57,359 bases of DNA from positions 1 through 57,359 of the forward strand of contig JAEOTM010000160.1 of NCBI GenBank assembly GCA_016839815.1, given 5' to 3'. This document shows positions 25,628-54,291 of the stretch, one piece after another (the first letter of the stretch is position 1; every line of letters begins with the position of its first letter). The DNA is from Candidatus Hodarchaeota archaeon. GTDB lineage: Archaea; Asgardarchaeota; Heimdallarchaeia; Hodarchaeales; Hodarchaeaceae. Made by a program: the position numbers and the translations under genes. Under the pieces are notes generated by a model. The model did no database searches and had not been told where the DNA came from. It saw only the letters and a list, made by a program, of their open reading frames with translations.

Positions 25628-25634
25628 TCTATTC

Positions 25635-30555: not shown

Positions 30556-30572
30556 GAATATATATTACAATC

Positions 30573-34343: not shown

Positions 34344-34352
34344 AAGTTCTCT

Positions 34353-34565
34353 ATGAACAAAAACAGAATAAAACTAATTTCTCGTCCAATTGGATCTTGG
34401 GATCCGTTTCAAGCTCCCTCACGATGCATAATATGCTGGAAACCAATGAAGGAAGGTGATGCATTAATGGAATGTCCCCATTGTCATAGCAGGGGGCATC
34501 AGGAGCATATGTTACGCTGGTTGTCAAAAAAGGATTATTGTCCTTACTGCAATAACAAGTGGTAA
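34353..34565 (+). CDS. small RING-like zinc-finger protein
   Basis: C-x2-C-x13-C-x3-H-x3-H-x2-H-x10-C-x2-C spacing approximates a RING-H2 cross-brace (ligand 6 is His). Confidence 0.4.
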   Translation: MNKNRIKLISRPIGSWDPFQAPSRCIICWKPMKEGDALMECPHCHSRGHQEHMLRWLSKKDYCPYCNNKW

Positions 34566-34566
34566 T

Positions 34567-35019: not shown

Positions 35020-35030
35020 GTTTTTTTTCC

Positions 35031-35975: not shown

Positions 35976-36148
35976 GATTTTTCACAACTGTCACTTAAAA
36001 ATGATTTTTTTCGCTTATTAATCTCACAATTTCTTTATTAATGCCTTTTGGTGGAGGAGGTAAGATTTCTGTTAAAGATTTTCCCTGCACTAATAAAGGA
36101 TAATTTTTAAAAAGAATCTCTAGAATCAAGATCGTATACGAGAGTCCT

Positions 36149-37180
36149 TTGAGGGATACCATATTGAACTTAGACGAATTAATCGAACATGGTTTTATTC
36201 CTGTAATTGATCCTACAACACCTGATTCACTAGCAGGCCAAGGAGCAAACGCATTTCTTGCTGAATATGGAGGGGTGGTTGAAGAAGTAGCACTCGTTTG
36301 CAAGAAAGAGGACGGATTAGTTACTTTTCGAAGTGGGGCAGCACCTAGTGATCGGAATTATGAAAACTTTTTTACAGATTTTACAGAATTAGCAAATGAT
36401 CTTGGAATGAAAACACACGCCTTTTCCTATGCTTTTGGCGACTCTTATCTTGGATCAGATCCAAACTATTCAATTGGTCGTTCAGATGGCACATTAATGA
36501 CTACCTATGTGGATCCAAGCATGGATGGATACTGGAAACACCTAAGTCAGATTTCTCGTGAGGTTGCTCGTAAACCTATTAGATCAATGATTTTACAAGA
36601 ATTTCTCTTCCCACGTCAGGAGTTTTCATTTTCAAAACGAGCAGTACGAAAATTTGCAGAATTGTCTGGTGTAAGCTTGGATACTAGTTATCTCGATATA
36701 CAAAAAGATCCATCTATTCAACGAATGTTTGAAGACTGGCGAGCTGATTTAATAAGTAGAGCGTTCCGTCAGACTGTTGAAGATGCTAGGAGTGAACGTC
36801 CAAGTTTGGATATTGGTATGGTTGTTCCCGTTGATCCTGAAACCGAGTGGCACGATGGTTTCAACCGTCATTATGGAATCAATCTCGATAGAATTATAGA
36901 AATTTGTGGATATGTCATTTACCATATTATGCCTTATTCTCCAATGTACCCTGAACCTGGTTCTCCAAGCTGGGATATATTAACTCAAGCCCTTCGTAGT
37001 TCAACCCTCTATGAGGAAAGTGGATATAAGAAAGCACTATTTGTCTGGGGATTGGATGCAGAAGATGATGTCAGCTGGATTGAAAATCTAAAACAGGAAG
37101 TTAATGCGGATAAAATTTTCGCCCGACTTGAATATCCTGATAAATATTCTATTAAACGTGAAATCCATCGTGGAGTTTGA
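36149..37180 (+). CDS. hypothetical protein
   Basis: 343-aa ORF with coding composition and no recognisable domain. Start uncertain. Confidence 0.3.
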   Translation: MRDTILNLDELIEHGFIPVIDPTTPDSLAGQGANAFLAEYGGVVEEVALVCKKEDGLVTFRSGAAPSDRNYENFFTDFTELANDLGMKTHAFSYAFGDSYLGSDPNYSIGRSDGTLMTTYVDPSMDGYWKHLSQISREVARKPIRSMILQEFLFPRQEFSFSKRAVRKFAELSGVSLDTSYLDIQKDPSIQRMFEDWRADLISRAFRQTVEDARSERPSLDIGMVVPVDPETEWHDGFNRHYGINLDRIIEICGYVIYHIMPYSPMYPEPGSPSWDILTQALRSSTLYEESGYKKALFVWGLDAEDDVSWIENLKQEVNADKIFARLEYPDKYSIKREIHRGV

Positions 37181-37187
37181 ACTTCCC

Positions 37188-37640
37188 CTATTTTTGGTTC
37201 CAGTGTGCATAACGTCGGATATAATCCACCACTTGATTCTGAAATAAACTACGATTCCGTTTCCACTGACGTGCTGCAGTCGCATTTAGAGGATCATCTG
37301 GATTTGGACTTGTTAAGAGAAATCGAATTGTTTCAACAACTTGAACCAAGCTATATGCAGGACTCCAATCCTTCCCGAGAATACCCACACATACCTTTTC
37401 TCTAAATATATTTACATGCCAAATAGGAGTCTTGAATCGAACCTTTGGTGGTTCAAATGGATAACTACGAGGGATTTTTATTTCTATTACAAACACCCCT
37501 CCTTCATATAACCCCGAACCAAGAATCTCGCCTTTCCAAAATGTTAAATCATTTCCCACAGATCGGAAGGTAGGTTGTTCCCGAGTTAGCTCTTGAGCTT
37601 CAATTGCCAGTCGATCCAACCATTCTTCTTCCGTTAACAA
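37188..37640 (-). CDS. ubiquitin-conjugating enzyme E2 (UBC fold)
   Basis: PPKVRFKTPIWHVNIFREKVCVGILGKDWSPAYSL is the UBC core with the active-site Cys, then the SPNPDDPLN helix. Confidence 0.8.
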   Translation of the reverse strand: MLTEEEWLDRLAIEAQELTREQPTFRSVGNDLTFWKGEILGSGLYEGGVFVIEIKIPRSYPFEPPKVRFKTPIWHVNIFREKVCVGILGKDWSPAYSLVQVVETIRFLLTSPNPDDPLNATAARQWKRNRSLFQNQVVDYIRRYAHWNQK

Positions 37641-38896: not shown

Positions 38897-40987
38897 GTGT
38901 TACTTCTGGAAGACTTAACTGATAAGAAATTTGTTGTGTGTCCAGCGTGGCCGTATATGAACGCCGTTCCTCACCTTGGAACTGTTCTGCATCTTCTCAG
39001 TGCAGATATTTACGTCCGTTACCTAAAACTCCGAGGAGCAAATGTTATTTCAGCTACAGGATCCGACTGTCACGGAACGCCGATTGAAGTCGCGGCCCTA
39101 GCCGAGGGGATTTCACCTGAAGAGTTGGTCAATCGTAATCATTCTCAAATTACACAACTACTTCGGGAATGGAATATCGACCTTAATTACTCAAAAACTG
39201 CCAATCCATTCCATTATCAATGGGTTCAGGATTTCTACAGGAAATGCTTTGAAAATGGTTACATTTTCAGTAAGGAAATCGATCAGCTTTATTGTAAGAC
39301 AGATAAACGATTTTTACCCGATAGATTTGTAGAAGGTACCTGTCCTTATTGTGAGACTCCAGGAGCACGTGGAGATCAATGTGATTCCCCAACCTGTGGG
39401 AAACCTCTCAGTCCTGTCGAATTGATCAATCCTGTTTGTAAAATTTGTGGGAAACCACCTGTGAAAAAAACCACAACTCAATGGTATTATGATTTTAGTG
39501 CATTTCAAGAGGAATTATCAGATTACATAAAACGAAATCAAACTCTTCCAGATAATGCCCGAAAGTTCTCAAATCATATTCTTGAAGAAGGATTACAAGC
39601 ACGAACACTTACCCGAGATTTAGCATGGGGTATTCCAGCTGGTCCCTCTATTCCTGGAGCTGATGCAAAAGTGATTTATGTTTGGCTAGAGGCAGTCTTG
39701 GGATATGTTTCCGCATCAGCTGAACTAGGATTACGTTTATACAAAGATCCTGACTATTGGAAGCAATTTTGGCTTGATCAAGATACTCAAACAATTTTTT
39801 TCATCGGAAAGGATAATATATTCTTTCATACTCTACTCTTTCCTGCACTCCTATTGGGGACAAAAGAGAGCTATGGAAAGCCATTTGTTCTTCCCTACAA
39901 TGTTAGCACAACCGAATTTTTGATATTCGATGATGATAAGTTTAGTAAATCTAGAGGTATTGGAGTGTGGATTGATGAAGCAGCACAGCTTCTTCCAACT
40001 GATTATTGGCGGTACTTTTTAGCGGCTACACGCCCAGAAATTAAGGATACTTCATTTACTTGGTCGGAATTTGAACAACGGATTAATAATGATCTTAATG
40101 ATGTCCTAGGCAACTATATCCATCGTGTTTTTGTGTTGATTCATAAATATTTTGAAGGAAAGATTCCAGAGTGCCACAGATTAGATGCTACGGACAGAGA
40201 ATTTGTTTCCGCAATCCACAATGTTCCCGAGTCTGTAGCTGATTATTTTGATAACTTTGAGTTTAAAAAAGCTGTAGCTGCGATAATTGATTTTGCTCGT
40301 ACAGCAAATGGCTATTTGAGCACAAAAGAGCCATGGAAATTAATTAAATCTGATCCTACCACCGTTGAAACTACTTTATATCTTTGCGCTCAATCAGTTG
40401 CCACTTTGAGTGTTCTTTTAGGACCAATCATTCCTGATTCTGCAGCAAAGATATGGCAAATACTAAAACAGGAAGGTAGTATCCATATTCAGCTTTTTCA
40501 GGAAGCAGGAAAGCTCAAATTAAATCCTGGTTCACTCATCTTAGAATCAAAACCTCTATTTGAAAAAATAGAGAGTGAGGACCTGCAGAAAAAACTTGAT
40601 GTAATTCAAAAGAAAGCAAATAAGAAACCAAAAAAGGTGAAAAAAGTGCCAGATAGGGACATAATTCCATTTAAAGATTTTGAAAGGCTGGATATTCGCA
40701 TAGGAACAATAACCAAGGCTGAAAAGATACCTAAAGCTAAGAATCTTCTTAAACTAAGGGTTGATCTGGGGGAAGATCTTGGAGAGAGACAATTAGTGGC
40801 TGGACTAGCATCATTCCGTGACCCTAAAGAGTTAATTGACCAAAGAATTACTGTAATAGTAAATCTTGAACCAGCGACAATTAGAGGTGTAAGATCAGAA
40901 GGAATGCTTCTCGCGGCAGTTGAAGGCAAAGATTTAGGCTTATTAATTCCTGACAAAGACATTCCTAACGGTACAAAAGTAAGCTAA
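38897..40987 (+). CDS. metG: methionyl-tRNA synthetase with C-terminal tRNA-binding (EMAP/Trbp111-like) domain
   Basis: P-YMN..PHLGT HIGH region, Zn knuckle CPYC...CDSPTCG, KFSKSRG KMSKS motif, C-terminal DIRIGTITKAEKIPKAKNLLKLRVDLGE OB fold. Annotated start is a non-ATG start. Confidence 0.9.
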   Translation: MLLLEDLTDKKFVVCPAWPYMNAVPHLGTVLHLLSADIYVRYLKLRGANVISATGSDCHGTPIEVAALAEGISPEELVNRNHSQITQLLREWNIDLNYSKTANPFHYQWVQDFYRKCFENGYIFSKEIDQLYCKTDKRFLPDRFVEGTCPYCETPGARGDQCDSPTCGKPLSPVELINPVCKICGKPPVKKTTTQWYYDFSAFQEELSDYIKRNQTLPDNARKFSNHILEEGLQARTLTRDLAWGIPAGPSIPGADAKVIYVWLEAVLGYVSASAELGLRLYKDPDYWKQFWLDQDTQTIFFIGKDNIFFHTLLFPALLLGTKESYGKPFVLPYNVSTTEFLIFDDDKFSKSRGIGVWIDEAAQLLPTDYWRYFLAATRPEIKDTSFTWSEFEQRINNDLNDVLGNYIHRVFVLIHKYFEGKIPECHRLDATDREFVSAIHNVPESVADYFDNFEFKKAVAAIIDFARTANGYLSTKEPWKLIKSDPTTVETTLYLCAQSVATLSVLLGPIIPDSAAKIWQILKQEGSIHIQLFQEAGKLKLNPGSLILESKPLFEKIESEDLQKKLDVIQKKANKKPKKVKKVPDRDIIPFKDFERLDIRIGTITKAEKIPKAKNLLKLRVDLGEDLGERQLVAGLASFRDPKELIDQRITVIVNLEPATIRGVRSEGMLLAAVEGKDLGLLIPDKDIPNGTKVS

Positions 40988-41031: not shown

Positions 41032-42165
41032 ATGTCTGAATGGGATTTAATTCTTTACACAGATGATAAGCAGAAAAATGTCAAGAATAAGCTAAAGCTT
41101 TCCGATAAAACCTTGTCTGCTGCAGGACAACACGGAAAAGCCACGATTTTGATTGATAATAAAGGGAAAGAATGGCTTCTTAAAGTCTTTTCAAAGATTC
41201 TTGACCTAGATGTGAAAAAAGTATCTGACCTAGACATCGATATCAAAGATACACCTGAACGTAGTCGTGATCGACTTCATTTATGGAGAGTACTAAACGA
41301 AATCACTGCTTCACGACTTGGCAGGCGGTTATACTTAAATGTACCAGAAACACATCTTATTTGTTCTGGGAAAATTGCTAAACTCGCACTTACACCCTCC
41401 ACTATCCTGAAAGAGGAAGATGTCGTTGTTTTGGATGAGGAAGAGGAAGAGGGAGAGACAGCCGAGGAATTCTATTTGTACTCGGAACGAGAAGTTGGAT
41501 CTTTAAAAACTTCAACTCGTTTTGAAAATCTTCTTGCTAAAAAAAGTAGTCGTGAAGATTCCACCGATGTACTGGCATTACTCCAAGAAAAAATTCCGAA
41601 TAGTCAAAATATTGATGAATACTTGGAAACTCAAAAAGCGGACTTAGATGGAGCTTTTGCTACAATACAAAGTATTGATGATGCTTTTCTACTTTTACCG
41701 TTTGATATCTGGTTAAATGACCCTGATCGTAATGCTGGAAACTATTTAATTCAGTTGAACCAAAAGAACGTAGCTTCAAAAATATGGGGCATTGATTACG
41801 AAATGTGGTCCTTTGGAAGTGATATTTGGATGGAAGAAGATAATATAACTCAAGGTAGAAGTTATCTCACTGCTATCATTCATCCTAAAAGCCATATATT
41901 TGATTCACGAGTTAATCAAACTTTTTATCGAATACGAATGCTTTCTGATGAGGAAGTTATTAAAATGACGAAGGCTCCACAGTTAGCCTGTAAATTTTTT
42001 GAATATCATGTAAATAAAGAAAATTTATCTTCTGATGAAAGAGAAAAATTGAAACAGGTGGAAGTTAACTTAGAAGATTTTCTTATTGAGTCACGACCAC
42101 GATCAGATAAACTTAGCGAAATCATAGCGAGGCAAATTGGATTACCAAAGGATTTTAAAACGTGA
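41032..42165 (+). CDS. hypothetical protein, possible HipA-like/atypical kinase fold
   Basis: LPFDIWLNDPDRNAGNYLIQ resembles a HipA-type catalytic loop (DxxxxN). Weak. Confidence 0.3.
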   Translation: MSEWDLILYTDDKQKNVKNKLKLSDKTLSAAGQHGKATILIDNKGKEWLLKVFSKILDLDVKKVSDLDIDIKDTPERSRDRLHLWRVLNEITASRLGRRLYLNVPETHLICSGKIAKLALTPSTILKEEDVVVLDEEEEEGETAEEFYLYSEREVGSLKTSTRFENLLAKKSSREDSTDVLALLQEKIPNSQNIDEYLETQKADLDGAFATIQSIDDAFLLLPFDIWLNDPDRNAGNYLIQLNQKNVASKIWGIDYEMWSFGSDIWMEEDNITQGRSYLTAIIHPKSHIFDSRVNQTFYRIRMLSDEEVIKMTKAPQLACKFFEYHVNKENLSSDEREKLKQVEVNLEDFLIESRPRSDKLSEIIARQIGLPKDFKT

Positions 42166-42172: not shown

Positions 42173-43348
42173 CTATCCATTTAGTTCCAGTAGTTTCTGA
42201 GATTTTAACGCCATCAGGTATTCTTCATTAGTTGGTATTACTAGAACTTGAACTTGAGAATTATTGGCTGAAATTGTTGTTTCTTCTTCCCCAATTGCTT
42301 CTTTATTACTAGAAGAGTCTAGAATTACGCCTAAACTTCCTAATCCATCCATGATTAATTCTCGGAAATACGGGGATCTTTCACCTATTCCACCCGTAAA
42401 TATAATTACATCTAATCCTCCCAATACAACAGAGTAGGCTCCTATATATTTCTGAATCCGATAAACAGCCATTTGGATAGCTAACTGCTCTTTTGAGTGT
42501 CCGCTCTGAGCACGGCTCTGGATATCACGCATATCTCTAAATCGGCCTGTAATTCCTAAGAAACCACTTTGAGAATTCAGTTCATAATCAATTTGATCTA
42601 TTGACAAGTTTTCAGATCGCATCATGGCAAGCATTATTCCTGGGTCAAGATCCCCAGAGCGAGTACCCATTATCAGTCCTTCAAGAGGAGTTAATCCCAT
42701 ACTTGTATCGACAGATTTTCCATCGTAGATAGCTGTTACTGATGCTCCATTACCGAGATGTAAAACGATAATTCTCTTACAATTTTCTGATTCCAATTTA
42801 TCTATAGCTCTATTGGTTACATATTCAACAGATGTACCATGAAAACCATATCTTCGATAAGAGTATTTTTCATACCATTTTCTTGAGATCGCATACTGAA
42901 AGGCATATTCTGGAATAGTATTATGAAATGAGGTGTCAAAAACAGCAATATGAGGAATTTTTGGGAGTTTCTTCTTACTAGCACGAATTCCCATGAGATT
43001 TGCAGGATTATGAAGCGGAGCAAGCTCAGAAAGATTTTTTATTTGGTTTTCAATCTCATTATCAATGACCACTTCTTTCCGGAACTCTTCACCACCATGT
43101 ACAACTCTATGGGCTACCGCGGCAATATCCTCTAAATTGAAAAATTTTAAAACATAATCAAGAGCATCTTCATGGTTCTTACAGCTTATTTCCTTTTTAA
43201 GCTCTTTATCTTCACCATTATGGACAATTTGAGAATTGGATAAACCAATCCTTTCTACTAATCCTTTAGCTAATAGCTGTTCAGATTCCATATTGTAAAT
43301 CGAATATTTGAGAGAAGATGAACCAGAATTTATGGTTAGGATAATCAA
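42173..43348 (-). CDS. ackA: acetate kinase
   Basis: MIILTINSGSSSLKY N-terminal ASKHA motif, VHGG, HLGNG, IFTGGIGE signature motifs. 391 aa. Confidence 0.9.
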   Translation of the reverse strand: MIILTINSGSSSLKYSIYNMESEQLLAKGLVERIGLSNSQIVHNGEDKELKKEISCKNHEDALDYVLKFFNLEDIAAVAHRVVHGGEEFRKEVVIDNEIENQIKNLSELAPLHNPANLMGIRASKKKLPKIPHIAVFDTSFHNTIPEYAFQYAISRKWYEKYSYRRYGFHGTSVEYVTNRAIDKLESENCKRIIVLHLGNGASVTAIYDGKSVDTSMGLTPLEGLIMGTRSGDLDPGIMLAMMRSENLSIDQIDYELNSQSGFLGITGRFRDMRDIQSRAQSGHSKEQLAIQMAVYRIQKYIGAYSVVLGGLDVIIFTGGIGERSPYFRELIMDGLGSLGVILDSSSNKEAIGEEETTISANNSQVQVLVIPTNEEYLMALKSQKLLELNG

Positions 43349-43358: not shown

Positions 43359-44807
43359 CTAATAAGTACCTGACTTCGAATCGGTTCCTTTTACGATAGC
43401 TATTGAGGCAGAAGCTCCAATTCTAGTTGCACCCGCGTTGATCATTTGTTCTGCAATTTCATGAGTTCTAATTCCACCTGCAGCCTTTACTCCCATTTCT
43501 GGACCTACTGTTTTGCGCATGAGTGCGATATCCTCAACTAATGCTCCTGCGGTGCTAAAACCAGTGGAAGTTTTCACAAAATCTGCACCACTTAATTTTG
43601 TTAAAAGGCTACCTTTCACAATTTGCTCCTTGGTTAGTAGAGCAGTTTCAAGAATAACTTTAACAATAGCTTTTCCAGCCGCAGCATTTACAACAGCTTG
43701 GATATCTTCCCTAACTAGATCGTCATTTCCTGATTTTAAAGCACCAACGTTAATCACCATATCTACTTCTTCTGCACCATTTGCTATAGCATCACGTGTC
43801 TCAATGGCTTTTACTGTTGGAGTTGTGGCTCCTAAAGGAAAACCAATTACGGTACACACTTTTACAGAACTACCTTTCAGATATTTTGCTGCTTTTGAGA
43901 CGTTTGTTGGATTAATACACACTGTGGCAAATTTATACGTAGCTGCTTCTTCACAAAGCTGTTTAATCTCTTCATCCGTCGCATCTGCACGTAAATTCGT
44001 GTGATCGATGTATTGAGCCAACCCCATATCATAACCGTTAATTCCCGTTTCAGAGGTTATCCTTGTGGCTCCTCCATTAACTAATGCTTTGACTGCAACT
44101 TGAGATTTTCCATCTAAGCCAATATCTTTTCCTGCAGTCCCAACTGTGTAGGTACGACTAGAGGGGGATGGAATATAAGAAGAAGGATCCTGATCGGTAA
44201 GATTTTGTACCTCTACAATTTTTATTCCCATAGATCTTAATTGATCTACAATCCCTTCAATTCTTCTATTCATAGCTGGTGGCACTTGATCTTTTTCAAT
44301 TTGACAACAATATATTGAATCATAAGCAGCAATCACAGGTTTTCCATACATCAATCCGAAAACAAGTGTAATTGTACCAAGAGTATCTGCATTTAACGCA
44401 GCCACCTTAGCTGCTGTATTTAAAGAAAGAATAGGCACATAGATAACATCAATTTTTCCTAAGATGTTTTCAAAATACTCTTCGGAATAATCTGTGATAA
44501 TCATAGCTCCTTCAGAGACTTTTCTAATATCAGGCATTCCGATGATTTTGATAGCTGCACGAGTCATAACGATGTACGTATTTGTATAGGATTTAGTTAT
44601 TAGTTCTATTTGATGCATTACTTCATTGATTTCTTTATTTCCACCGCATAGGAGAATCAAAGCAGAGGTTCCTGAGGAAATACTGTAATTTACTTTCTTA
44701 TTAGAAGTCTGTAACCTTGGGTTTGACTGTGTTGGAGGAGTAAGTGAATCCTGATCAAGCTTTCTCATAACCTCCTCTGTAATTTTTTGTATCATTTCAT
44801 TACTCAT
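43359..44807 (-). CDS. deoC: deoxyribose-phosphate aldolase (DeoC) with N-terminal encapsulation-peptide-like helix and ~200-aa extra domain
   Basis: C-terminal ~230 aa align with DeoC, including Schiff-base Lys in FVKTSTGF. N-terminal [17 protein letters not shown] amphipathic helix plus linker. Middle alpha/beta domain unassigned. Confidence 0.8.
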
Positions 44808-44826: not shown

Positions 44827-45117
44827 TTAACTTAATTCTATTTGTTTTCCGTTGACTTCGACGTAGTCCACGACACCTATTATTAATGCATCAACCGCTG
44901 CTTTATCATTTTGCATTATCCCTCGTATAGAGTTACCTTCGCGAATCACAAGAACACAATCTCCAATTCCGGCTTTTGCTGTATCCAACGCGATAATTGA
45001 TGGATCAGTAAACTCTCCTTTCAAATCTATCGGACGTACTACTAGTATCTTTCCATTTTCATGACTTTCCGTCTTGATTGGAGCTACTACATTCCCAATA
45101 ACTTTAGCAAGAATCAT
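44827..45117 (-). CDS. BMC vertex protein (BMC-P, EutN/PduN/CcmL family)
   Basis: 96 aa, MILAKVIGNVVAPIK...GIGDCVLVIREG...IIGVVDYVEV is the EutN fold. Confidence 0.85.
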   Translation of the reverse strand: MILAKVIGNVVAPIKTESHENGKILVVRPIDLKGEFTDPSIIALDTAKAGIGDCVLVIREGNSIRGIMQNDKAAVDALIIGVVDYVEVNGKQIELS

Positions 45118-45656
45118 TCTGACTCACTCACTACAGGTTCAGGCTCAATTTCTTGAATTTTTTTTGGTATTTTCTTTCTAACTGATTTTTTCCTAGGTTT
45201 TTTCTTAGGAATAGGTTTCGTTTCTTCATCTACTTCCGCAGGAGGAACTTTAGATTTAGGGATCGATTCTAGAGCTGTTTTTTCTGTAATTTCCCTGATT
45301 TCTTCCTCAGGTTCTTCCTCAAGTGGTTTCAGTGTGGGTGGTGGTGCTTTCTTCTTCCGTTTTCTCTGAGGTTTTCGTTTTGCACTTTTAGTTACATAAT
45401 ACTCCTCTACATAACCTACAATACACTCATCAATTGGAACAAGCTCTTTCGGAAATACAATAGCTGCTTCTTTTTTACTGACAACATATACAATATCTCC
45501 AGGTCCTGCCGTCTCGATTCCATCAGCAGCAACATAAGGGGTTCCTAAGGGCTGAAGATTATCGTCTAATCCTTGGACTATTAGAAGTCGTAATGAATTC
45601 AAACCTGGATCTTTTGTCGAGGCAACAACATTTCCTATTACTTTACCAAGTTTCAT
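45114..45656 (-). CDS. BMC-P vertex protein with ~90-aa Lys/Glu/Pro-rich C-terminal tail
   Basis: N-terminal 90 aa EutN-like (MKLGKVIGNVVAST...). C-terminal KRKPQRKRKKKAPPPTLKPLEEEPEEE...KKKPRKKSVRKKIPKK is low-complexity. ATGA overlap with the downstream gene. Confidence 0.8.
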   Translation of the reverse strand: MKLGKVIGNVVASTKDPGLNSLRLLIVQGLDDNLQPLGTPYVAADGIETAGPGDIVYVVSKKEAAIVFPKELVPIDECIVGYVEEYYVTKSAKRKPQRKRKKKAPPPTLKPLEEEPEEEIREITEKTALESIPKSKVPPAEVDEETKPIPKKKPRKKSVRKKIPKKIQEIEPEPVVSESE

Positions 45657-45660: not shown

Positions 45661-46119
45661 TCACGCTGACTTCAGATATTTTAATTCAATTTCAGTAATT
45701 TTATTCACTCTCGTTTCATGCCTTCCTCCACCAACTGGAGTAGTCAACCAGATTTTAACAATATTTTGAGCAATACCAGGTCCGATAACTCTTGCACCTA
45801 AAGTTAGGACATTTGAGTTATTGTGTTCTCGTGCAGAATTAGCAGTAAATTCATCAGTACATGGAGTAGCTCTGATTCCTTTTATCTTGTTGGCAATAAT
45901 TGCACTAGCAACTCCTGTTCCATCGATTATAATTCCTACGGATTCTAAGGACACAGCTACTGTCTGAGCCACTAATAAAGCGATATCAGGATAATCCACA
46001 GGATCAGTAGAATAACATCCATAATCTGTAACGTCATATCCTAATCCTTTAAGGAATTTAATCAAATCTTTCTTCAGATGATATCCTCCATGATCGGATC
46101 CAATTATTATTTTCTTCAT
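45661..46119 (-). CDS. rpiB: ribose-5-phosphate isomerase B / sugar-phosphate isomerase (RpiB/LacAB)
   Basis: MKKIIIGSDHGGYHLK...GCYSTDPVDYPD...GTGVASAIIANK...VLTLGARVIG is the RpiB family, 152 aa. Confidence 0.85.
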   Translation of the reverse strand: MKKIIIGSDHGGYHLKKDLIKFLKGLGYDVTDYGCYSTDPVDYPDIALLVAQTVAVSLESVGIIIDGTGVASAIIANKIKGIRATPCTDEFTANSAREHNNSNVLTLGARVIGPGIAQNIVKIWLTTPVGGGRHETRVNKITEIELKYLKSA

Positions 46120-46144: not shown

Positions 46145-46690
46145 TTAAAGTAGAGTTTTCACTAAATCGGGGTGAGGAGCAGGAATTATTGCTATAGAGA
46201 GTATTAATCCTTCGCCCTTTACGCGATTAACCCCTGCTTCCACAGCTGCTCTTACAGCACCAACTTCTCCTGTTAAGACTACGAAAGCTTTTCCACCAAT
46301 TGCACGACTCATCCGAATTTCGACTAGCCGCACCTGTGCACTTTTCACAGCCTCATCACCAACCATTATGGCCGTTGGAGCAGAATATGTTTCGACGACT
46401 CCGATTGCACCAACTTCATCGATATTTGTTGAACCTGCAATTGCGGGGAATACCTCAGGGTGAATGTTTGGTATCACTGTATAATTTACTAGGGTTTCAC
46501 CAGCGATTTCACTTCCAGCAATCAAGGAGCTTTGAACAGCTGCAACTGCTCCTTGAATTATTATCAAATACTTCCCAGGGCATACTGGTGATGCGAATAG
46601 CAGCTCTACGTCAGCTGTTTTTACAATCGTATCCGCACTTAATATACCTCGAGCAATTACATTCGTCTCAAGAACTCCGATTGCGCGCAT
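46145..46690 (-). CDS. BMC-T tandem-domain shell protein, PduT-like with conserved Fe-S cysteine
   Basis: Two BMC domains in 181 aa. SPVCPGKYLII matches PduT ICPGKFLL (the Cys that ligates the trimer 4Fe-4S). Second domain AIGVVETYS... Confidence 0.8.
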   Translation of the reverse strand: MRAIGVLETNVIARGILSADTIVKTADVELLFASPVCPGKYLIIIQGAVAAVQSSLIAGSEIAGETLVNYTVIPNIHPEVFPAIAGSTNIDEVGAIGVVETYSAPTAIMVGDEAVKSAQVRLVEIRMSRAIGGKAFVVLTGEVGAVRAAVEAGVNRVKGEGLILSIAIIPAPHPDLVKTLL

Positions 46691-46766: not shown

Positions 46767-47045
46767 TCAACCTTTCTTTGGAAGTATACTCTCAACTTCA
46801 TCATGAGGTCGTGGAATCACATGAGCTGAAGTTAATTCACCAACTTTTCGCGCAGCAACTGCACCAGCTTCAACAGAAGCTTTGACAGCACCTACATCAC
46901 CTCTAACCATTACAGTGACGAATCCACCGCCAATAACTTCGCGTCCCATTAGATGAACGTTCGCTGCTTTCACCATAGCGTCAGCCGCTTCAATAGATGC
47001 AACTAACCCTTTTGTTTCTATTAATCCAAGTGCTTCTTTAGCCAT
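46767..47045 (-). CDS. BMC-H hexameric shell protein (PduA/EutM-like)
   Basis: [27 protein letters not shown]...[23 protein letters not shown] is the canonical Pfam00936 sequence. Confidence 0.9.
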
Positions 47046-47071: not shown

Positions 47072-48397
47072 TTATTTTGTCTTTTCAATGACAATTTCTT
47101 GTCCAATATGCCGGATAATCCCGCTGATACTCGCGTGAATTACCGCACCTAGTGACCCATCAGGAATTTTCCCAATGAGTGCACCTTTTTCTACCGTTTC
47201 TCCTACTTTCACAATGGGAATAGCAGGGTCACCGATATGTTGTTTGAGAGGTATTGAGACTTGTCGAACCTGCATCTTCCGTTTTTGAATTGGACAATCG
47301 TGATTATAACTAATTAAATCCAATCGAGAAATTAGTCGTTTTACAGGTAGTTTTCGGTATTCCCTCTCAGGATGAATCGATAGTACTTTTCGATTATGAG
47401 AATTTTTTAATCCTTCCGCTCTCAACTGTTCTTTAACTTCTGTCATCATTTTACAGGGATCTAAACCCATAGGACATCCATAATAAGTACAGGCTCCACA
47501 TTCTACACAAAGGAATGTTCCAGTCATATATTCAGGTCTTTCGGGTGCTCCCCAAGCTATACCTCGCATGACTTTATCAGGGTATAATTCATGACCTAAC
47601 AAAAACCTAGGACACACTTCTGTGCATAATTGGCATCTTATACAGGCCGCTTTGGTAACTATAACTTTAGAGGAAATCCTTTCATTTTTCATTTTTAAAA
47701 CGAAATGATCCTTAGGTAAGACTATAATTCCAGAAGTTAATTTTGTAATAGCTTCTTTAGGATCAATAGCTTTACCCATCATTGGACCATTAATTAATAT
47801 ACCATAATTATCGATTGTAGCTCCTCCTGCGGCTTTGATTGCATCTTTTATGGAGGTGCCTATTGGAAAATCCATAGTAGTGGGATTTTTTACTGCACCT
47901 GTAATAGTAACGTATCGAGAGACAATCGATTTGCCTTCAGAAGCTTCAGAAAGGTTTATTAACGTGTATACATTATTAACTACCACCCCTATATCAAGAG
48001 GAAGCCCACTTTCCGGAATTATTTTCCCTAAGGCCTCATACACTAGAACATGCTCATCTCCAGCAGGATAAACATCATCTAGTAGGAGAATTTCAAGTCG
48101 TGAATCTGTTTTTATTACCTGTTTTAGCTTCTTAATTGCAGCTTTATATTTTCTTTTTACTGCAATAATCCCTCTTTTTGCCCCAGTTGCTTTCATCCCT
48201 AATTGTAGTCCATTCACTAATTTTTCTGGGAAAGCTACCATTAATTGTTGATCTACTCGTAAAAGAGGTTCACATTCTGCTGCATTCACAATGTAGGTAT
48301 CCACTTTTGCAGATAGCTTTATATGAGTAGGAAAGCCAGCTCCTCCTGCTCCTACTATACCAGAATTGCGAGCCATTTCTACAATATCGGAACTCAA
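47072..48397 (-). CDS. PduS/RnfC-like Fe-S flavoprotein oxidoreductase
   Basis: GAGGAGFPT NAD(H)-binding motif and two 4Fe-4S motifs (CIRCQLCTEVCP, CVECGACTYYGCP). 441 aa. Confidence 0.75.
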   Translation of the reverse strand: MSSDIVEMARNSGIVGAGGAGFPTHIKLSAKVDTYIVNAAECEPLLRVDQQLMVAFPEKLVNGLQLGMKATGAKRGIIAVKRKYKAAIKKLKQVIKTDSRLEILLLDDVYPAGDEHVLVYEALGKIIPESGLPLDIGVVVNNVYTLINLSEASEGKSIVSRYVTITGAVKNPTTMDFPIGTSIKDAIKAAGGATIDNYGILINGPMMGKAIDPKEAITKLTSGIIVLPKDHFVLKMKNERISSKVIVTKAACIRCQLCTEVCPRFLLGHELYPDKVMRGIAWGAPERPEYMTGTFLCVECGACTYYGCPMGLDPCKMMTEVKEQLRAEGLKNSHNRKVLSIHPEREYRKLPVKRLISRLDLISYNHDCPIQKRKMQVRQVSIPLKQHIGDPAIPIVKVGETVEKGALIGKIPDGSLGAVIHASISGIIRHIGQEIVIEKTK

Positions 48398-48423: not shown

Positions 48424-49851
48424 TCATATTATTCTGAAAGCATCTACAAGAGTACATCGTCTTTGTCTTGTAAAGGTTCTTGCAGAGGTAAGTCCTTCTC
48501 CTGTTGGACCTGCTATCGTCATGGTAGTGTACCCCTCTCCTCCGAAACCTATTCCAGCCAATGATGGTGCATTTTTAACGAAGATGGTTGTTTCTATATT
48601 TTTTGCTACTAAACTCATATTCCCTACTGAATCACTCCACATCATTGCTGTATGCTTAAATCCATGTTCTGCTTTCTTAGCCTTTCGTAACGCTTCCTCT
48701 ATTGTCTTAACCCGAACTATTGGGAGAACAGGCATTAACATCTCAGAAATCACAAATGGGTGTTCATCATCAGGCACCTCAGCAATTATTAAGCGAATAT
48801 TATCGCTAACTTGGATACCTATTCCCTCAAGAATTACTTTAGCATCTTTCCCAATGAAATCTCTATTGACGATAGGAAATCTTCCCTTCTTCCCTGTAAA
48901 CACAAGATTCTCCAATTGAATGATTTGGTCTCCAGTAAGTTCATATGCCCCATAATTCTTCATTTCTGCCTTTAATCGGTTCGTAATTGCGTCAAATGCA
49001 AAGACTTCCTTTTCAACAATGCAAACAATATTATTATCAAAACTTGCACCTTCCACAATCCCCCTCGCTGCTTTTTGAATATCAGCTGTATCATCCACAA
49101 TGACAGGAGGATTTCCTGGACCAGCACAGACTGCTTTCTTTCCAGATTGCATAGCCGCTTTAACAACCGCACTACCCCCAGTTACTACCAAGCATCTTAT
49201 TTTCTTGTGGGTCATTAGAGTCTGTGCTGACTTGATTGTGGGGGATATTGTTGACGTAAGCACATTCTCTGGACCTCCAGCTTCTAAAATTGCCCTATTC
49301 AATAATCTGACTGCTTCATTACTTGCTCTTTTAGCTGAGGGATGAGGATTAAAAACTACTGAATTTCCTGCAGTAACCATTGAAATTCCGTTGTTAATAA
49401 CGGTTGCAGTTGGATTGGTCGAGGGCGTAATAGATCCAATTACACCGTATGGGGCCATTTCAACTAATGTTAATCCTTTATCTCCTGTCCATGTATTTGG
49501 TACTAAATCTTCTAGCCCAGGAGTCTTACGGGCACATAATAAGTTTTTTGCAACCTTATCCTCTAATCGTCCTAAATTAGTCTCTTGAATTGCTAATTCA
49601 GCAAGATATCGGGAATGTTTGATGGCTGTATCACGCATTGATTGGATAATTTCTTTACGCTTTTCAAGTGAAAGATCCATTAATGCAGTTTGACTTTTTT
49701 CTGCAGCTTCAATGGCCTGCTCAATGTTCTGAAATATACCCCCTCCTGCAACGGCGGGGAGATTTTCTAAACCCGAATAAACCTGATAAGCACGTATTTT
49801 TTGTACAACAGTATTGACGATTTTGGCAATTTGTTGTTCATCATATGTCAT
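48424..49851 (-). CDS. CoA-acylating aldehyde dehydrogenase (EutE/PduP family) with N-terminal encapsulation-peptide-like helix
   Basis: Strong EutE-like blocks (GPGNPPVIVDDTADI, catalytic Cys in DNNIVCIVEKEVF, C-terminal TSARTFTRQRRC). N-terminal EQQIAKIVNTVVQKI amphipathic helix. Confidence 0.85.
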   Translation of the reverse strand: MTYDEQQIAKIVNTVVQKIRAYQVYSGLENLPAVAGGGIFQNIEQAIEAAEKSQTALMDLSLEKRKEIIQSMRDTAIKHSRYLAELAIQETNLGRLEDKVAKNLLCARKTPGLEDLVPNTWTGDKGLTLVEMAPYGVIGSITPSTNPTATVINNGISMVTAGNSVVFNPHPSAKRASNEAVRLLNRAILEAGGPENVLTSTISPTIKSAQTLMTHKKIRCLVVTGGSAVVKAAMQSGKKAVCAGPGNPPVIVDDTADIQKAARGIVEGASFDNNIVCIVEKEVFAFDAITNRLKAEMKNYGAYELTGDQIIQLENLVFTGKKGRFPIVNRDFIGKDAKVILEGIGIQVSDNIRLIIAEVPDDEHPFVISEMLMPVLPIVRVKTIEEALRKAKKAEHGFKHTAMMWSDSVGNMSLVAKNIETTIFVKNAPSLAGIGFGGEGYTTMTIAGPTGEGLTSARTFTRQRRCTLVDAFRII

Positions 49852-49899: not shown

Positions 49900-50190
49900 T
49901 CACTTTCTATAGCTTTCTTTTCCATTTATCTGTATGAAATCAATTATTGCTTGAATTGTTGCATCAGTTGGTCGATCTTTAGTCATTGCAGTCAGACGAG
50001 AGGAGCTACCTGTTACAACTAACACTAATTCATCTTCTCCTGCTCCAACTGCATCAATAGCTACAAAGGGAGAGCTCTCTGGTTTTAGGTCAGTCATGTC
50101 CACTGGTTGAACAATTAAGAGTTTAAAACCTTTAATACCGGCATCCTTCTCAGTACTTACTACATTTCCGATAACCTTACATACTTTCAT
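49900..50190 (-). CDS. BMC vertex protein (BMC-P)
   Basis: MKVCKVIGNVVSTEK...GAGEDELVLVVTGSS is the EutN/CcmL fold, 96 aa. Confidence 0.85.
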   Translation of the reverse strand: MKVCKVIGNVVSTEKDAGIKGFKLLIVQPVDMTDLKPESSPFVAIDAVGAGEDELVLVVTGSSSRLTAMTKDRPTDATIQAIIDFIQINGKESYRK

Positions 50191-50201: not shown

Positions 50202-50921
50202 CTAAATCTTAATGATTTTTATATCTAGCATTTTGGCCTTTTCGTGAGCTAGAGGCGTTATAATAGTTGAATGTGGTACAAATATTTCATGAGTTTTACC
50301 TTGTAAATTCTCTAAATAATCTTCAGTTATTAAATCTGGAATAGCGGGAGTATGTTTGACAAATTGGTCAGCTAAATCGTCAACATTTACTAATCTAAAT
50401 CCCATTTCAATCAAAGTGGAAAGGTGTTTGCTCAATTGATTGGTCAATATCCCAGACGGCCCATAAGCAAACGTTAGTTCTGTTGGAGGAAATGGAGTAA
50501 CTATATAAACTGGAATTTGAGATAACAAGCCTTGAAGTAATAAATTAACTGTTGAATTAGAATCTTCTAAATGGGTGATTTTGTTAGCAAGCTCAAAACT
50601 AAAAGCACCATACATTACTGATTCAAGGTCGTTGTAAAACTGTAAACAAAAATCTCCGCTCGATTTAATTATAATATCCATAGTTGGAATTGATGCAGCT
50701 CGTGATGTGAATTTGAGGGCATCATTAATATCTTTCTTAGTCCAAATTAGAATCTTCGCCTGTTTTTGAGCTAGTCTGACAAGAGCATTGAACAAATCAT
50801 CCAGTCCTTGCCCCATATGTGTTAAGATGCCTAGTATTTCATATGGTCCAAGTTTTTGGTCAGGTGTGAGAACACTTCTTACTTGCTGAGTTACAAGTGA
50901 TTCAAGCTCTTTCTCATTCAA
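50202..50921 (-). CDS. BMC-associated protein of unknown function with N-terminal encapsulation-peptide-like helix
   Basis: KELESLVTQQVRSVL amphipathic N-terminus plus linker, then a 200-aa alpha/beta domain with no recognised motif. Embedded between shell genes. Confidence 0.4.
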   Translation of the reverse strand: MNEKELESLVTQQVRSVLTPDQKLGPYEILGILTHMGQGLDDLFNALVRLAQKQAKILIWTKKDINDALKFTSRAASIPTMDIIIKSSGDFCLQFYNDLESVMYGAFSFELANKITHLEDSNSTVNLLLQGLLSQIPVYIVTPFPPTELTFAYGPSGILTNQLSKHLSTLIEMGFRLVNVDDLADQFVKHTPAIPDLITEDYLENLQGKTHEIFVPHSTIITPLAHEKAKMLDIKIIKI

Positions 50922-50938: not shown

Positions 50939-51259
50939 TTAATCTCTACCAGGATCTTCTTCTACACTTGAGGTCCGCTTTCTGACTTTCTCAATTAGCT
51001 CGATTGTCACCTTATCTGGCCGTGGAATCACATTGGTAAGTAACCCACAGGAAATCTTACGAAGTTGCTGTTTTGCAGCTTCAATTGCTTCATGAACTGC
51101 TGCAACCTCACCCTCAATGATCACTATCACAAGACCACCAGAAACACGTCTTAATGAAATTAGATTCACATCAGCAGCTTTCATAGCTGTATCTGTGGCT
51201 ACAATAGCACCGATGCGTCCACAAGTCTCCATGAATCCAATTGCGTCCATAATTTTCAC
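50939..51259 (-). CDS. BMC-H hexameric shell protein
   Basis: DAIGFMETCGRIGAIVATDTAMKAADVNLI...GGLVIVIIEGEVAAVHEAIEAA. 106 aa. Confidence 0.85.
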   Translation of the reverse strand: MKIMDAIGFMETCGRIGAIVATDTAMKAADVNLISLRRVSGGLVIVIIEGEVAAVHEAIEAAKQQLRKISCGLLTNVIPRPDKVTIELIEKVRKRTSSVEEDPGRD

Positions 51260-53112
51260 CTGAATGGAGAAAAAGCCTCTTTATCTAAATCCGTGATTAA
51301 TGTCCCCATTTCTCCATTATTCAGTGCTAAGGCATTACCCTCATCAAGGTCCAGATGCAACTCCAGACTATAATCAGGATGAACTCTAATCATGACCTCA
51401 TCTAATATTCCTGCTCGTGTTCCTGGAAATTTAACCGCTACTACCTGTTTATCATTTACACTTAGTCTTTGTGCATCTTTGGGTGACATGTGAATGTGTC
51501 GTGCAGCAAATATAACTCCTTTTTCTAGTGTGATTGCTCCTTTGGGGCCAAGAAGATGTACCCCAGGAGTACCTGCTAAATTTCCTGATTGACGTGTAGG
51601 TGGATTTATCCCTAAAACATACCCATCACTACGAGAAATTTCTACTTGGGTCTCTTTTCTAAAAGGACCAAGAATTCGTACCCCATAGATTGCTCGTTTA
51701 GGACCAATTAAATCAACTACTTCTTCACATGCATATTCTTTCGGCTGGGAAAGGGAATTTAGAGGAGTTAGAGATGCATCTTCTCCAAAAAGTTTATGGA
51801 AATCACTCTTTTCCAAATGAATATGCCGTGCAGAGAGAGAGACTGGAATCTGGTTATCGCTAATAACTTTGGACAACTCTTGAGTAATAATCCTTCTTAC
51901 TAAGTTTTTATTACTTGGAGAACTATTTCGGTGAGTAATCGGTTGATACTCACACCCTAGAGGACCACAATATCTACCTACATACTCCGCAGATGGTCGA
52001 TAAATTACAGGCTTAACTGAAGGTGTTTCTGGATATTTTTCTTCCAATACATGAGCTGTCCACCCTGCTACTCTTGATGTTGTAAAGATTGGTGTAAATA
52101 AATCTACAGGTATGTTAAGACTCGTATAAACTGTAGCTCCATATAAATCTACGTTGGGATAGATCCCCCGATTCTTTCTCCGCTTAAATTCAGCCTGCGT
52201 AATCTCAACCATTTTATTTGTAGTTTCGTACATCCACTTAGCAATTCCCCCCTTCTGTTTAACAAGATCACCTGCCATTTCCTTGAGTATTTTGGCCCTT
52301 GGATCAATTGTTCGATAAACAGCATGACCCATTCCCATAACTCGTTTACCAGCATTAAAACGATTCTTTACCCATTCTTCAATACTTGGGGCTTTTTTGA
52401 TTTCCATTAAACTCTCATAGACAAGATAATTCGCTCCTCCATGATATTGTCCTGATAATGATCCGATTGCTCCAGAAATAGCTGCATAGAGATCTGCTCC
52501 TGTTGAGGCGATGACTCTTGCAGTAAATGTGGATGCATTAAAGGAATGTTCAGCATGCAAAATTAATGAGACATCAAAGATTCTTGTTTCTTCCTTTGGG
52601 GGGATTTTTCCATGAAGCATAAAAAGAAAATTAGCTGCATAGTTTAATTTGGGATTCGGCGATATAGGATCCTTATTATTTCTTATTCGTTCCCATGCAG
52701 TCACTATTATAGGGAGAAGCGCAATGATTTTTACTGCAATATTTCGATCTGACTCTTTTGTCCCTCTCCCTATCTCAGTATCATATCCTGCTAATAAGGC
52801 TAAAGACGATTGAAGAACACTCATGGAAGGAGTTGCTTTTGTAGTTTTTTGTAAATGAGTTATCAACTCTGAAGGGAGCTTTTGGTTTGATCGAATTGAA
52901 GTCTTGAATGATTTCAATTTGTCTAAAGAGGGGAGTTTTCCAAACAAAAGTAAATATACTACTTCTTCGTACGTTGAATTTCTCGCTAAATCCTTTATGT
53001 CATATCCACGAATAAAAAGATTCCCCTTATCTCCTTCAATCAAGCAAATATTAGTATCTGCAACTTCGACTCCACGGAGACCAGTTGATTTGTGGCTATG
53101 TTCTTCAATCAT
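51256..53112 (-). CDS. fusion protein: citrate-synthase-like domain (N) + PduL-type phosphotransacylase (C)
   Basis: Residues 1-~390 carry citrate-synthase-family blocks (LILHAEHSFNASTF, GMGHAVYRTIDPRA, RVAGWTAHVLEE). Residues ~400-618 carry two PduL (PF06130) repeats (ARHIHL, ARHIHM). ATGA overlap with the downstream BMC-H. Confidence 0.75.
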   Translation of the reverse strand: MIEEHSHKSTGLRGVEVADTNICLIEGDKGNLFIRGYDIKDLARNSTYEEVVYLLLFGKLPSLDKLKSFKTSIRSNQKLPSELITHLQKTTKATPSMSVLQSSLALLAGYDTEIGRGTKESDRNIAVKIIALLPIIVTAWERIRNNKDPISPNPKLNYAANFLFMLHGKIPPKEETRIFDVSLILHAEHSFNASTFTARVIASTGADLYAAISGAIGSLSGQYHGGANYLVYESLMEIKKAPSIEEWVKNRFNAGKRVMGMGHAVYRTIDPRAKILKEMAGDLVKQKGGIAKWMYETTNKMVEITQAEFKRRKNRGIYPNVDLYGATVYTSLNIPVDLFTPIFTTSRVAGWTAHVLEEKYPETPSVKPVIYRPSAEYVGRYCGPLGCEYQPITHRNSSPSNKNLVRRIITQELSKVISDNQIPVSLSARHIHLEKSDFHKLFGEDASLTPLNSLSQPKEYACEEVVDLIGPKRAIYGVRILGPFRKETQVEISRSDGYVLGINPPTRQSGNLAGTPGVHLLGPKGAITLEKGVIFAARHIHMSPKDAQRLSVNDKQVVAVKFPGTRAGILDEVMIRVHPDYSLELHLDLDEGNALALNNGEMGTLITDLDKEAFSPFR

Positions 53113-53346: not shown

Positions 53347-54291
53347 GTGTTAATTAGAGGTTTTTCACTTGACACATCTTACCATTGTTCTGATTGTCAT
53401 TTGAAATGTTGTGCAACTGAATTCAATCTACCCCTGTGTGGATCAGAAAAATCGATTCTGAGTCAATATTACCCCGAATATCAGTTTTACCTTCAATCAA
53501 CTACAGATGGAGATTATATCCTTCGTGGGAATTCATGTCCGTTTTTAACAAACAATGGTTTGTGTCAGCTTCATTCTAAACATTTGAAACCACTCACATG
53601 TCAAATTTACCCGTTATTGTTTTGGCGATATTCCACCACCGATACTTTAGTCTCAATTCATCCTTGTCGGGGAAATGGGTTCAGTTGGTACTCAAGAAGT
53701 AATTCGCAGATCAGCAATCCTCAGCTTGAAGAACTTTTAACCAAGGCAAACATGCATTTTGAATCCTATTGGGGAGAAAATATAGACAAAAATAATCCCT
53801 ACGCAGGTATTTCCCCTACAAGGATTGAATCCCAAATAGATTACTATAATACCATTCCAGAAGACCAGTTATTGGTAAAAATAACAAGTGATTCTAATCT
53901 ACCTTCTCGATTTCTGGATTCTCAATCATCCTCTGAAAAAACCCTTATTATGATTAAAGATGGTATAGTAGGGAGATATCTAAATTCTGTACTTAATTGG
54001 CTGATTTGGAGTCCCGTAGGACTTCAGCTATCAATAAAAAACGCTCAAATGATATTTTCTGTAGCAGCTTTCTGGTTGATTAAACAGACAGAATTGAATC
54101 CTAAAATCAAAACCACTATCTTAAACAGTACTGACTATACCGAGCAAGTGGCTTCATATTATGCGAGTTCCATCCTTCCAACGTTCTGGCTTAAGATCGT
54201 CTCTGAGAGAGAAAATAAGGCTCTAAGTTCTTTCGCTAAAAAAGTATACTTAATTCTCATGGGAAAACTCTCTCAGGAGGATTTACTATAA
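53347..54291 (+). CDS. YkgJ/UPF0153-family Cys-rich (putative Fe-S/Zn) protein
   Basis: CSDCHLKCC (CxxCxxxCC) plus later Cys pairs. 314 aa. Confidence 0.45.
   Translation: MLIRGFSLDTSYHCSDCHLKCCATEFNLPLCGSEKSILSQYYPEYQFYLQSTTDGDYILRGNSCPFLTNNGLCQLHSKHLKPLTCQIYPLLFWRYSTTDTLVSIHPCRGNGFSWYSRSNSQISNPQLEELLTKANMHFESYWGENIDKNNPYAGISPTRIESQIDYYNTIPEDQLLVKITSDSNLPSRFLDSQSSSEKTLIMIKDGIVGRYLNSVLNWLIWSPVGLQLSIKNAQMIFSVAAFWLIKQTELNPKIKTTILNSTDYTEQVASYYASSILPTFWLKIVSERENKALSSFAKKVYLILMGKLSQEDLL

Follow-up and report, generated by a model that had tools for sequence, protein, structure and literature searches.

Why should a protein that caps the vertices of a microcompartment shell carry a long, densely charged tail, and to what might such a tail hold on? 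The question is raised by a gene on a contig of 57,359 nucleotides from Candidatus Hodarchaeota archaeon (GenBank assembly GCA_016839815.1, contig JAEOTM010000160.1), which was analysed at its full length and is referred to here as the window. The gene is the second of three paralogues in its operon that encode the vertex protein BMC-P (BMC, bacterial microcompartment). It is the orthologue of AMC-P2 (AMC, archaeal microcompartment), and the tailed protein as such is already known from a preprint of November 2025 (Du et al., bioRxiv 2025.11.08.687404, PMC12747264). We consider it likely that the tail is a multivalent, sequence-nonspecific binder of polyanions, in this case nucleic acid, and that it tethers the compartment to nucleic acid.

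The pentamer domain and the tail of AMC-P2

The open reading frame (ORF), which begins with MKLGKVIGNVV, falls into two parts. Pfam places EutN_CcmL (PF03319) on residues 1-83 with 72.3 bits, above the gathering cutoff of 25, and has no match for residues 84-180. A model built with AlphaFold2 (AF2) from an alignment of 78 sequences folds residues 1-88 into a beta-barrel, with a local confidence score (pLDDT) of 82-95 over most blocks, and Foldseek matches the modelled domain to GrpN (4i7a) with a TM score of 0.82-0.86 and also to CcmL, EutN and the pentamer of shell 5v74, never over more than about 87-93 aligned columns. The best phmmer match in the PDB is the BMC-P of that same shell, from Haliangium ochraceum (HO), a chain of 96 amino acids. 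Family score, barrel fold and shell-protein neighbours (two genes for BMC-H and one for BMC-T, PF00936, within 6 kb and on the same strand) all place the protein among the BMC-P, and by analogy with these its domain would pentamerise and cap the vertices of the shell. This bears out an earlier note on the same DNA, made from the sequence alone, which had named the gene a BMC-P vertex protein and had held about 90 residues to be the normal length: solved BMC-P chains among the PDB matches are 95-111 residues long, and 73 bacterial and Thermoplasmatota relatives have 87-122.

The tail that follows has 92 residues (21 K, 6 R, 17 E, 1 D and 15 P), of which K and R make up 29%, and it lacks Cys, Gly and all aromatic residues. 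When open segments of 100 amino acids or more are compared in all six frames, no other part of the window is as dense in K and R or as highly charged; the second most K/R-rich and charged stretch belongs to a methionyl-tRNA synthetase whose C-terminal domain binds tRNA (38897-40987), and the third to a Snf7 gene (21729-22340). The composition is as the earlier note had it when it spoke of a disordered polybasic and acidic tail, and the peptides that it quoted (KRKPQRKRKKKAPPP, EEEPEEE and KKKPRKKSVRKKIPKK) are all present in the ORF. As to disorder, the tail falls on the disordered side of the Uversky charge-hydropathy plot, and the AF2 model has zero secondary structure over residues 83-180 (pLDDT 54-71), both of which fit a disorder-type composition. 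The charges are arranged in blocks (Table 1): kappa, the measure of their segregation, is 0.48 as compared with 0.15 +/- 0.05 in shuffled tails, none of 200 shuffles being as segregated. The proline hinge APPPT was considered as a profilin or SH3 ligand and rejected, as three prolines are too short and the motif is confined to one subclade.

Among 5.8 billion proteins searched there were 79 relatives, of 119-227 amino acids, and all of those that are named come from metagenome-assembled genomes of Hodarchaeales, Hodarchaeota, Heimdallarchaeota or Promethearchaeota. With the tail boundary set at the conserved PIDECIVG motif, all 78 Asgard homologues carry a tail, of 31-138 residues (median 77) and with medians of 33% K+R, 14% proline and a net charge of +17, which settles the conservation in related Asgard bins that the earlier note had raised. 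The proximal basic cluster is the single tail element found in every homologue tested (75 of 75 tails, with 4-10 K/R within the first 16 residues, median 8), and the distal cluster is usual across them. Sequence, length and internal repeats otherwise vary freely, with lineage-specific repeats of SSTRI (eight copies), PPPES (seven copies), KPKPSSVPKT and EIPSEEIET, and because of this free divergence it is composition that selection seems to keep. The tail is exactly 92 residues long in seven of the eight closest homologues despite about 40% substitution; composition and length, and not sequence, thus appear to be the target.

Selection on the two parts was compared by the ratio of nonsynonymous to synonymous substitution (dN/dS) in gapless alignments of 180 residues with two species-level relatives, in which dS is near saturation and the ratios are therefore rough. 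The domain (residues 1-88) has an identity of 94-97% and a dN/dS of 0.02-0.04, and the tail (residues 89-180) an identity of 58-60% and a dN/dS of 0.17-0.24, which indicates that the tail evolves about 6-12 times faster than the domain and is yet constrained, under purifying selection. A run of 92 codons without a stop after the domain has a probability of about 0.001 at the local base composition, and both other frames through the tail hold many stops. The continuous frame, the recurrence in 78 homologues from independent assemblies and the dN/dS of about 0.2 together argue that the tail is a translated, selected extension. The artefact of which the earlier note had warned, a misassembled fusion with a downstream ORF, or else a read-through or frameshift, has next to no probability, since the same architecture recurs in those independent assemblies, complete chromosomes included, the length of the tail is held in the closest homologues, and the next gene, P3, starts at the stop codon of the tail. 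Chance low complexity of an AT-rich genome was likewise set aside, the tail being the compositional extreme of the window and under selection.

The coding strand of basic cluster 2 contains a tandem duplication of 12 nucleotides (CCTAGGAAAAAA, twice), in perfect frame, so that part of the tail grew by slippage; the A-rich coding strand of the tail also has runs of A6-A8. Larger in-frame repeat expansions are seen in homologues, and these tails appear to grow by replication slippage.

The described AMC-P2 and the reach of long tails

Of 111 Hodarchaeales genomes, 66 have archaeal microcompartments according to Du et al., who trace these to acquisition from Myxococcota and find AMC-P2 fused to a K/R-rich intrinsically disordered region (IDR) of 36-137 amino acids in 58 of the 66 operons (PMC12747264). 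For GCA_003144275 they show assembly of the shells both in vitro and in E. coli, and they detect P2 by mass spectrometry in purified shell particles. DNA and RNA came out of E. coli together with full-length P2 and likewise with the IDR by itself, but not with P2 that lacked the IDR, the IDR being both necessary and sufficient for this co-purification (PMC12747264). In vitro, H2, Ts and P1 sufficed for the formation of shells in the absence of P2, and the locus tags that they give are H1 05300, P1 05310, H2 05325, Ts 05330, P2 05340 and P3 05345 (PMC12747264). Of the binding of nucleic acid or other polyanions, which the earlier note had named as a role for the tail, that of nucleic acid is thus shown by co-purification for the AMC-P2 of that genome.

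The operon in the window is collinear with that on NJBF01000010.1 (B3_Heim, locus L006), with identities of 80-96% over the genes for shell proteins and enzymes that run from AldDH to Flav-DERA, 72% for AK and 73% for P2. We believe that B3_Heim (NJBF01) is the genome GCA_003144275, whose AMC-P2 would then be this 73%-identical orthologue, and the spacing of the locus tags fits the gene order. As in AMC-P2, the pentamer gene of the window lies between RPI and P3 and has a K/R-rich IDR whose length is within the described range; family, type I operon, position and class of tail are all shared, and there is no categorical difference. However, the tails are described simply as positively charged (PMC12747264), whereas that in the window stands at the acidic, low-net-charge and charge-segregated end of the family. 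To the preprint we add the contrast in selection between tail and domain, the universal basic cluster next to the domain and the subclade of block polyampholytes of low net charge; further additions are the signature of slippage, the apparent translational coupling of P2 and P3, and the short Arg-rich tails on some bacterial pentamers.

With canonical BMC-P proteins (EutN, CcmL, GrpN; PF03319) the P2 of the window shares domain, fold and association with BMC-H and BMC-T genes, but where canonical chains have 95-111 residues and the nearest 73 relatives 0-34 extra residues, it has a tail of 92. Judged from its gene content, the locus is a complete type I sugar-phosphate-utilisation (SPU) microcompartment operon: the signature of the SPU metabolosome is DERA with RpiB and a triplet of BMC-P paralogues (PMC11585597), and DERA (PF01791), RpiB (PF02502), AldDH, PTAC and three BMC-P paralogues are all present. 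This set is shared with bacterial SPU metabolosomes (Sutter et al. 2021; PMC11585597), from which the window differs in its archaeal host, a fusion of citrate synthase (CS) with PTAC, a flavoprotein-DERA fusion and the long IDR on one of three pentamers. Both fusions are called unusual for BMC loci by Du et al. (PMC12747264).

A protein search with the tail alone returned no match, not even its orthologues, and is hence silent on similar tails elsewhere. The C-terminal domain of histone H1 and PhaM of Ralstonia are K/P-rich and disordered and bind nucleic acid without regard to sequence. By its lysine-rich tail PhaM fixes cytoplasmic inclusions, the granules of polyhydroxybutyrate (PHB), to the nucleoid. 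The likeness is one of mechanism only, with no detectable sequence relationship to the tail in the window. Unlike tails of the H1 and PhaM type, the latter has large acidic blocks and is without S/TPKK, PAKKA or AKKA repeats, a motif scan of it having found no [ST]PKK, PAKKA, AKKA or RGRP match.

With each GTDB species represented by a single genome, the nearest 80 relatives comprise seven Asgard loci, whose tails have 47-96 residues and 14-30 K/R, and then 73 others with the few extra residues given above (Acidobacteriota, Latescibacterota, Myxococcota, Bacillota, one Thermoplasmatota archaeon and others). When 1.84 billion cluster representatives were scanned with HMMER, the best 150 matches agreed with this pattern and included two further long K/P-rich tails, one in a divergent Hodarchaeales clade (P0082) and one on an archaeal contig of GCA_016840025.1 (P0083). 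As long tails are restricted to Asgard among the nearest relatives sampled, these comparisons place the origin of the long tail inside the Asgard lineage. A bacterial-type locus of 74% GC, whose operon adjoins a PAS-histidine kinase gene, has a P2 counterpart with a non-basic tail of 20 residues in the syntenic position (RPI-P2-P3-DeoC). On a contig of 41% GC (L002:681-9878 and L003) lies an SPU operon that is nearly complete and in which the counterpart in the same position has 99 residues and no tail. The homocitrate synthase flanking it is nearest to those of Methanomassiliicoccales and Thermoplasmatota, and the locus points to another archaeal lineage that may have the compartment but not the tail.

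Short Arg/Lys-rich ends of low complexity (18-45 residues) are found on some bacterial or metagenomic BMC-P proteins (L045:4001-4321 from Acidobacteria, P0122, P0182, P0174 and P0110), for example PPRRSPRRRAPRR, GTPPKRRRR and GGGGKRRRR, the first four of these proteins having RRRR or KRRRR at the terminus, and the Asgard tail is therefore extreme rather than absolutely unique. They qualify the view that bacterial microcompartments have no pentamer tails. The C-terminal extensions for which the earlier note had proposed a search among other BMC-P proteins thus exist as long tails in Asgard and as short Arg/Lys ends in some bacteria.

One locus in GCA_016840025.1 (L001:6742-10182, JAEOTF010000506.1) keeps only a tailed P2, P3 and DeoC, directly downstream of a LAGLIDADG homing-endonuclease gene, and no BMC-H or BMC-T gene was found within 8 kb upstream or in the roughly 8 kb covered downstream of DeoC. 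This operon looks like one that is split or decaying. The ParA/CbiA genes there were considered as partition ATPases and rejected, as they have Fe-S domains and look unrelated.

What the tail may bind, and to what end

Closed HO shells can be pulled down by way of a Strep tag at the C-terminus of BMC-P, and in the same manner a C-terminal tag on AMC-P1 served to isolate AMC shell particles, which had P2 among their components (Du et al., PMC12747264). As C-terminal tags on these pentamers are accessible, the C-terminus of P2 and its tail should project outward. A phrase search of the literature, with limited coverage, returned no direct statement of an outward BMC-P C-terminus in the 5v74 shell.

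We propose that the disordered tail would leave the outer face of the pentamer, five tails at each vertex, and that its working parts would be the two polybasic clusters (+9 and +12), kept apart by spacers rich in proline and glutamate. Five tails would bring about 135 basic residues and ten polybasic clusters together at one vertex, where they could jointly bind polyanions by electrostatic attraction, DNA and RNA above all, and a vertex bearing P2 would in this way tie the compartment to nucleic acid. The acidic blocks of the subclade seen in the window would probably make such binding weak, salt-sensitive and reversible. For the tail in the window we infer all four of these elements: the outward orientation, the multivalency at the vertex, the tuning by acidic blocks and the physiological ligand.

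Several points weigh against a nucleic-acid tether. We infer the outward orientation from tags on other pentamers, and the evidence for binding is co-purification from E. coli lysate, which almost any polybasic peptide would give. The tail in the window is among the least positive of the 75 compared (net charge per residue +0.10, seventh lowest) and is the most charge-segregated of them (z 6.3), and its acidic blocks could mask the basic clusters. In addition, the pLDDT of 54-71 over the tail is soft evidence of disorder, and AF2 with an alignment of 25 sequences left even the domain unfolded (mean pLDDT 51).

If the tail does hold nucleic acid, the purpose remains to be considered. Du et al. 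propose that the tails catch imported foreign DNA in the cytosol and keep it at the shell, deoxyribose-5-phosphate (Dr5P) being made beside the compartment that consumes it. We regard this as possible but rather unlikely, notwithstanding that the entry substrate of the SPU compartment derives from DNA breakdown, that the tail of AMC-P2 binds DNA (PMC12747264) and that Hodarchaeales are reported to be without de novo purine synthesis. The shell is impermeable to DNA, and between DNA and Dr5P lie four steps by soluble enzymes (nuclease, nucleotidase, phosphorylase and mutase), for which the operon has no genes and no recruitment is known, and the preprint's own model has this conversion free in the cytosol. 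Moreover RNA was bound too, imported DNA would be a rare partner of a nonspecific polybasic tail in comparison with the chromosome and the rRNA of the cell itself, and bacterial SPU compartments perform the same chemistry without long tails.

About equally plausible as such capture of nutrient DNA, and to our minds doubtful as well, is that the tails moor compartments to the chromosome of the cell itself, or to ribosomes and RNA, and so provide for their spacing, immobilisation and inheritance. Binding that is nonspecific, extends to DNA and RNA and depends on the tail is what this would require, selection on composition and not on sequence is what a generic anchor would predict, and vertices, as the sole positions in the shell without contacts between like neighbouring subunits, would tolerate appendages. 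Nor is there a ParA/McdA-type partition gene within the operon or adjoining it. On the other hand, bacterial metabolosomes manage without such tails, and the comparison with PhaM is no more than an analogy, the tail in the window having no PAKKA or S/TPKK repeats.

It is improbable, in our view, that the tail serves mainly to control the colloidal state or the assembly of the shells, whether as bristles against aggregation, through clustering or condensation by charge blocks, or in the choice of the paralogue that closes a vertex. The extreme charge segregation of the subclade (kappa 0.48, with z of 4-6 in the closest homologues) would suit such a role, as would the three BMC-P paralogues that SPU loci always have and the apparently coupled translation of P2 and P3 through their ATGA overlap. 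Blockiness is not family-wide, however (median z 1.6, with many tails less than 8% acidic), and as it is not conserved it is not the ancestral function, and shells of H2, Ts and P1 form in vitro without P2.

The earlier note had also thought of a tether to the membrane or to the cytoskeleton and of shell-cargo condensation. We give very little credence to a membrane tether, in which the polybasic clusters would bind anionic lipids and electrons from MNdh and Ts would reach electron-transport chains in the membrane. Polybasic stretches are able to bind acidic lipids, and the operon encodes an electron-exporting MNdh and an Fe-S BMC-T, but aromatic residues, an amphipathic helix and a lipidation motif are all missing from the tail, and the co-purified nucleic acids would compete for the same basic clusters. 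A scaffold facing the lumen, with inward tails that condense cargo enzymes or nucleate the core, is just as improbable: disordered scaffolds, CsoS2 for one, organise carboxysome interiors (PMC10484944), and several cargo enzymes of the AMC operon have encapsulation peptides (PMC12747264), but C-terminal tags on BMC-P, AMC-P1 included, are accessible on assembled shells, and the 12 vertices of an icosahedral shell give at most 60 tails, a poor stoichiometry for a core scaffold.

Tentatively, the tail can also be seen as a device for positioning an organelle and not for catching food. Block-charged tails at the vertices would reversibly tie the shell to the cell's own chromatin or RNA, or shells to each other in a condensate, and control their spacing and inheritance, and the acidic blocks would act as a salt- or pH-sensitive release switch; we hold this for a speculation that is less probable than the tether itself. 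If true, it would concern a metabolic organelle of the closest archaeal relatives of eukaryotes. Microcompartments were long regarded as purely bacterial, and their presence in Hodarchaeales together with a lineage-specific charged vertex tail bears on the internal organisation of the archaeal ancestor of eukaryotes. The tail is in addition a natural case of shell-vertex functionalisation, relevant to microcompartment engineers. As the feature spotted from the sequence alone is a main result of the 2025 preprint, its value here is confirmatory; the ligand of the tail in vivo, and the reason for binding it, are experimentally tractable.

The operon and its surroundings

The operon has 13 genes on the minus strand, listed from first to last in Table 1 together with the parts of P2 and the nearby cluster of genes for ESCRT and ubiquitin components.

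Table 1. Positions of AMC-P2 and its parts, of the microcompartment operon and of the ESCRT/ubiquitin cluster in the window (FCR, fraction of charged residues)
Feature	Position	Strand	Remarks
Complete AMC-P2 / BMC-P ORF with C-terminal disordered tail, gene 10	45114..45656	-	180 aa + stop, continuous frame; tailed pentamer
EutN/CcmL (PF03319) beta-barrel pentamer domain, residues 1-88	45393..45656	-	Pfam, AF2, Foldseek, phmmer, dN/dS
Disordered K/E/P-rich tail, residues 89-180	45117..45392	-	FCR 0.49, net +9, kappa 0.48
Basic cluster 1, residues 93-103, KRKPQRKRKKK	45348..45380	-	net +9; begins 5 residues past domain
Proline hinge, residues 104-108, APPPT	45333..45347	-	net 0; (A/L)PP(P)T kept in closest ~30 homologues
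Acidic block 1, residues 109-131, LKPLEEEPEEEIREITEKTALES	45264..45332	-	net -6
Middle segment, residues 132-139, IPKSKVPP			net +2
Acidic block 2, residues 140-146, AEVDEET	45219..45239	-	net -4
Basic cluster 2, residues 147-167, KPIPKKKPRKKSVRKKIPKKI	45156..45218	-	net +12
12-nt tandem duplication in basic cluster 2	45186..45209	-	KKPRKK part of PKKKPRKK
Acidic C-terminus, residues 168-180, QEIEPEPVVSESE	45117..45155	-	net -5; ES(E/T)E end kept in closest 8 homologues
Citrate synthase-phosphotransacylase (PTAC/PduL) fusion, gene 1	51256..53112	-	
BMC-H shell hexamer AMC-H1, gene 2	50939..51259	-	
Conserved protein without Pfam match, gene 3	50202..50921	-	'DUF' of preprint
AMC-P1, BMC-P paralogue, gene 4	49900..50190	-	tail-less, 96 aa
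Acylating aldehyde dehydrogenase (AldDH), gene 5	48424..49851	-	
RnfC/PduS-like flavin Fe-S NADH dehydrogenase (MNdh), gene 6	47072..48397	-	
BMC-H shell hexamer AMC-H2, gene 7	46767..47045	-	
BMC-T shell trimer AMC-Ts, gene 8	46145..46690	-	tandem BMC domains
RpiB-type ribose-5-phosphate isomerase (RPI), gene 9	45661..46119	-	SPU signature enzyme
AMC-P3, BMC-P paralogue, gene 11	44827..45117	-	tail-less, 96 aa; ATG overlaps P2 stop
Flavoprotein-DeoC (DERA) fusion, gene 12	43359..44807	-	SPU signature enzyme
Acetate kinase (AK), gene 13	42173..43348	-	last gene
ESCRT-II subunit	19711-20487		
Vps4	20530-21675		with MIT domain
Two Snf7/ESCRT-III genes	21729-23011		
EAP30/Vps22-36	23221-23943		
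Vps28	25635-26255		
UEV/E2-like	26265-27008		
Ras/Roc GTPase	27201-28433		~215-aa N-terminal extension
Yip1	29806-30555		
ThiF/E1	30573-31694		
Arf-like GTPase	33154-33723		
E2	37188-37640		

The stop codon of P2 and the start codon of P3 overlap by four nucleotides (ATGA, 45114-45117), an arrangement that suggests translational coupling of the two and possibly mixed or co-regulated pentamers. In the DeoC fusion the N-terminal region of about 260 residues is flavoprotein-like, its match to PF02441 being weak (E 0.0047).

That the host is an Asgard archaeon, as the earlier note had supposed, follows from the names of the closest homologues (Hodarchaeales, Hodarchaeota and Heimdallarchaeota) and from eukaryotic-signature genes on the contig, which has TFIIB, RadA and an ESCRT-I/II/III-Vps4-ubiquitin cluster. 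This cluster occupies 19711-37640, and its nearest end is about 4.5 kb from the microcompartment operon.

Five ORFs of 239-447 amino acids have no Pfam match: 53347-54291 (+), 41032-42165 (+), 50202-50921 (-), 24284-25627 (+) and 36149-37180 (+). Two ORFs of this kind flank the operon, and that at 53347-54291 (+) is divergent from the start of the operon and has a Cys-rich N-terminus. Further away, 9122-12142 encodes a protein of 1006 amino acids with DUF7948, SBBP beta-propeller repeats and Ig-like/cadherin-like domains, which is probably a large surface protein.

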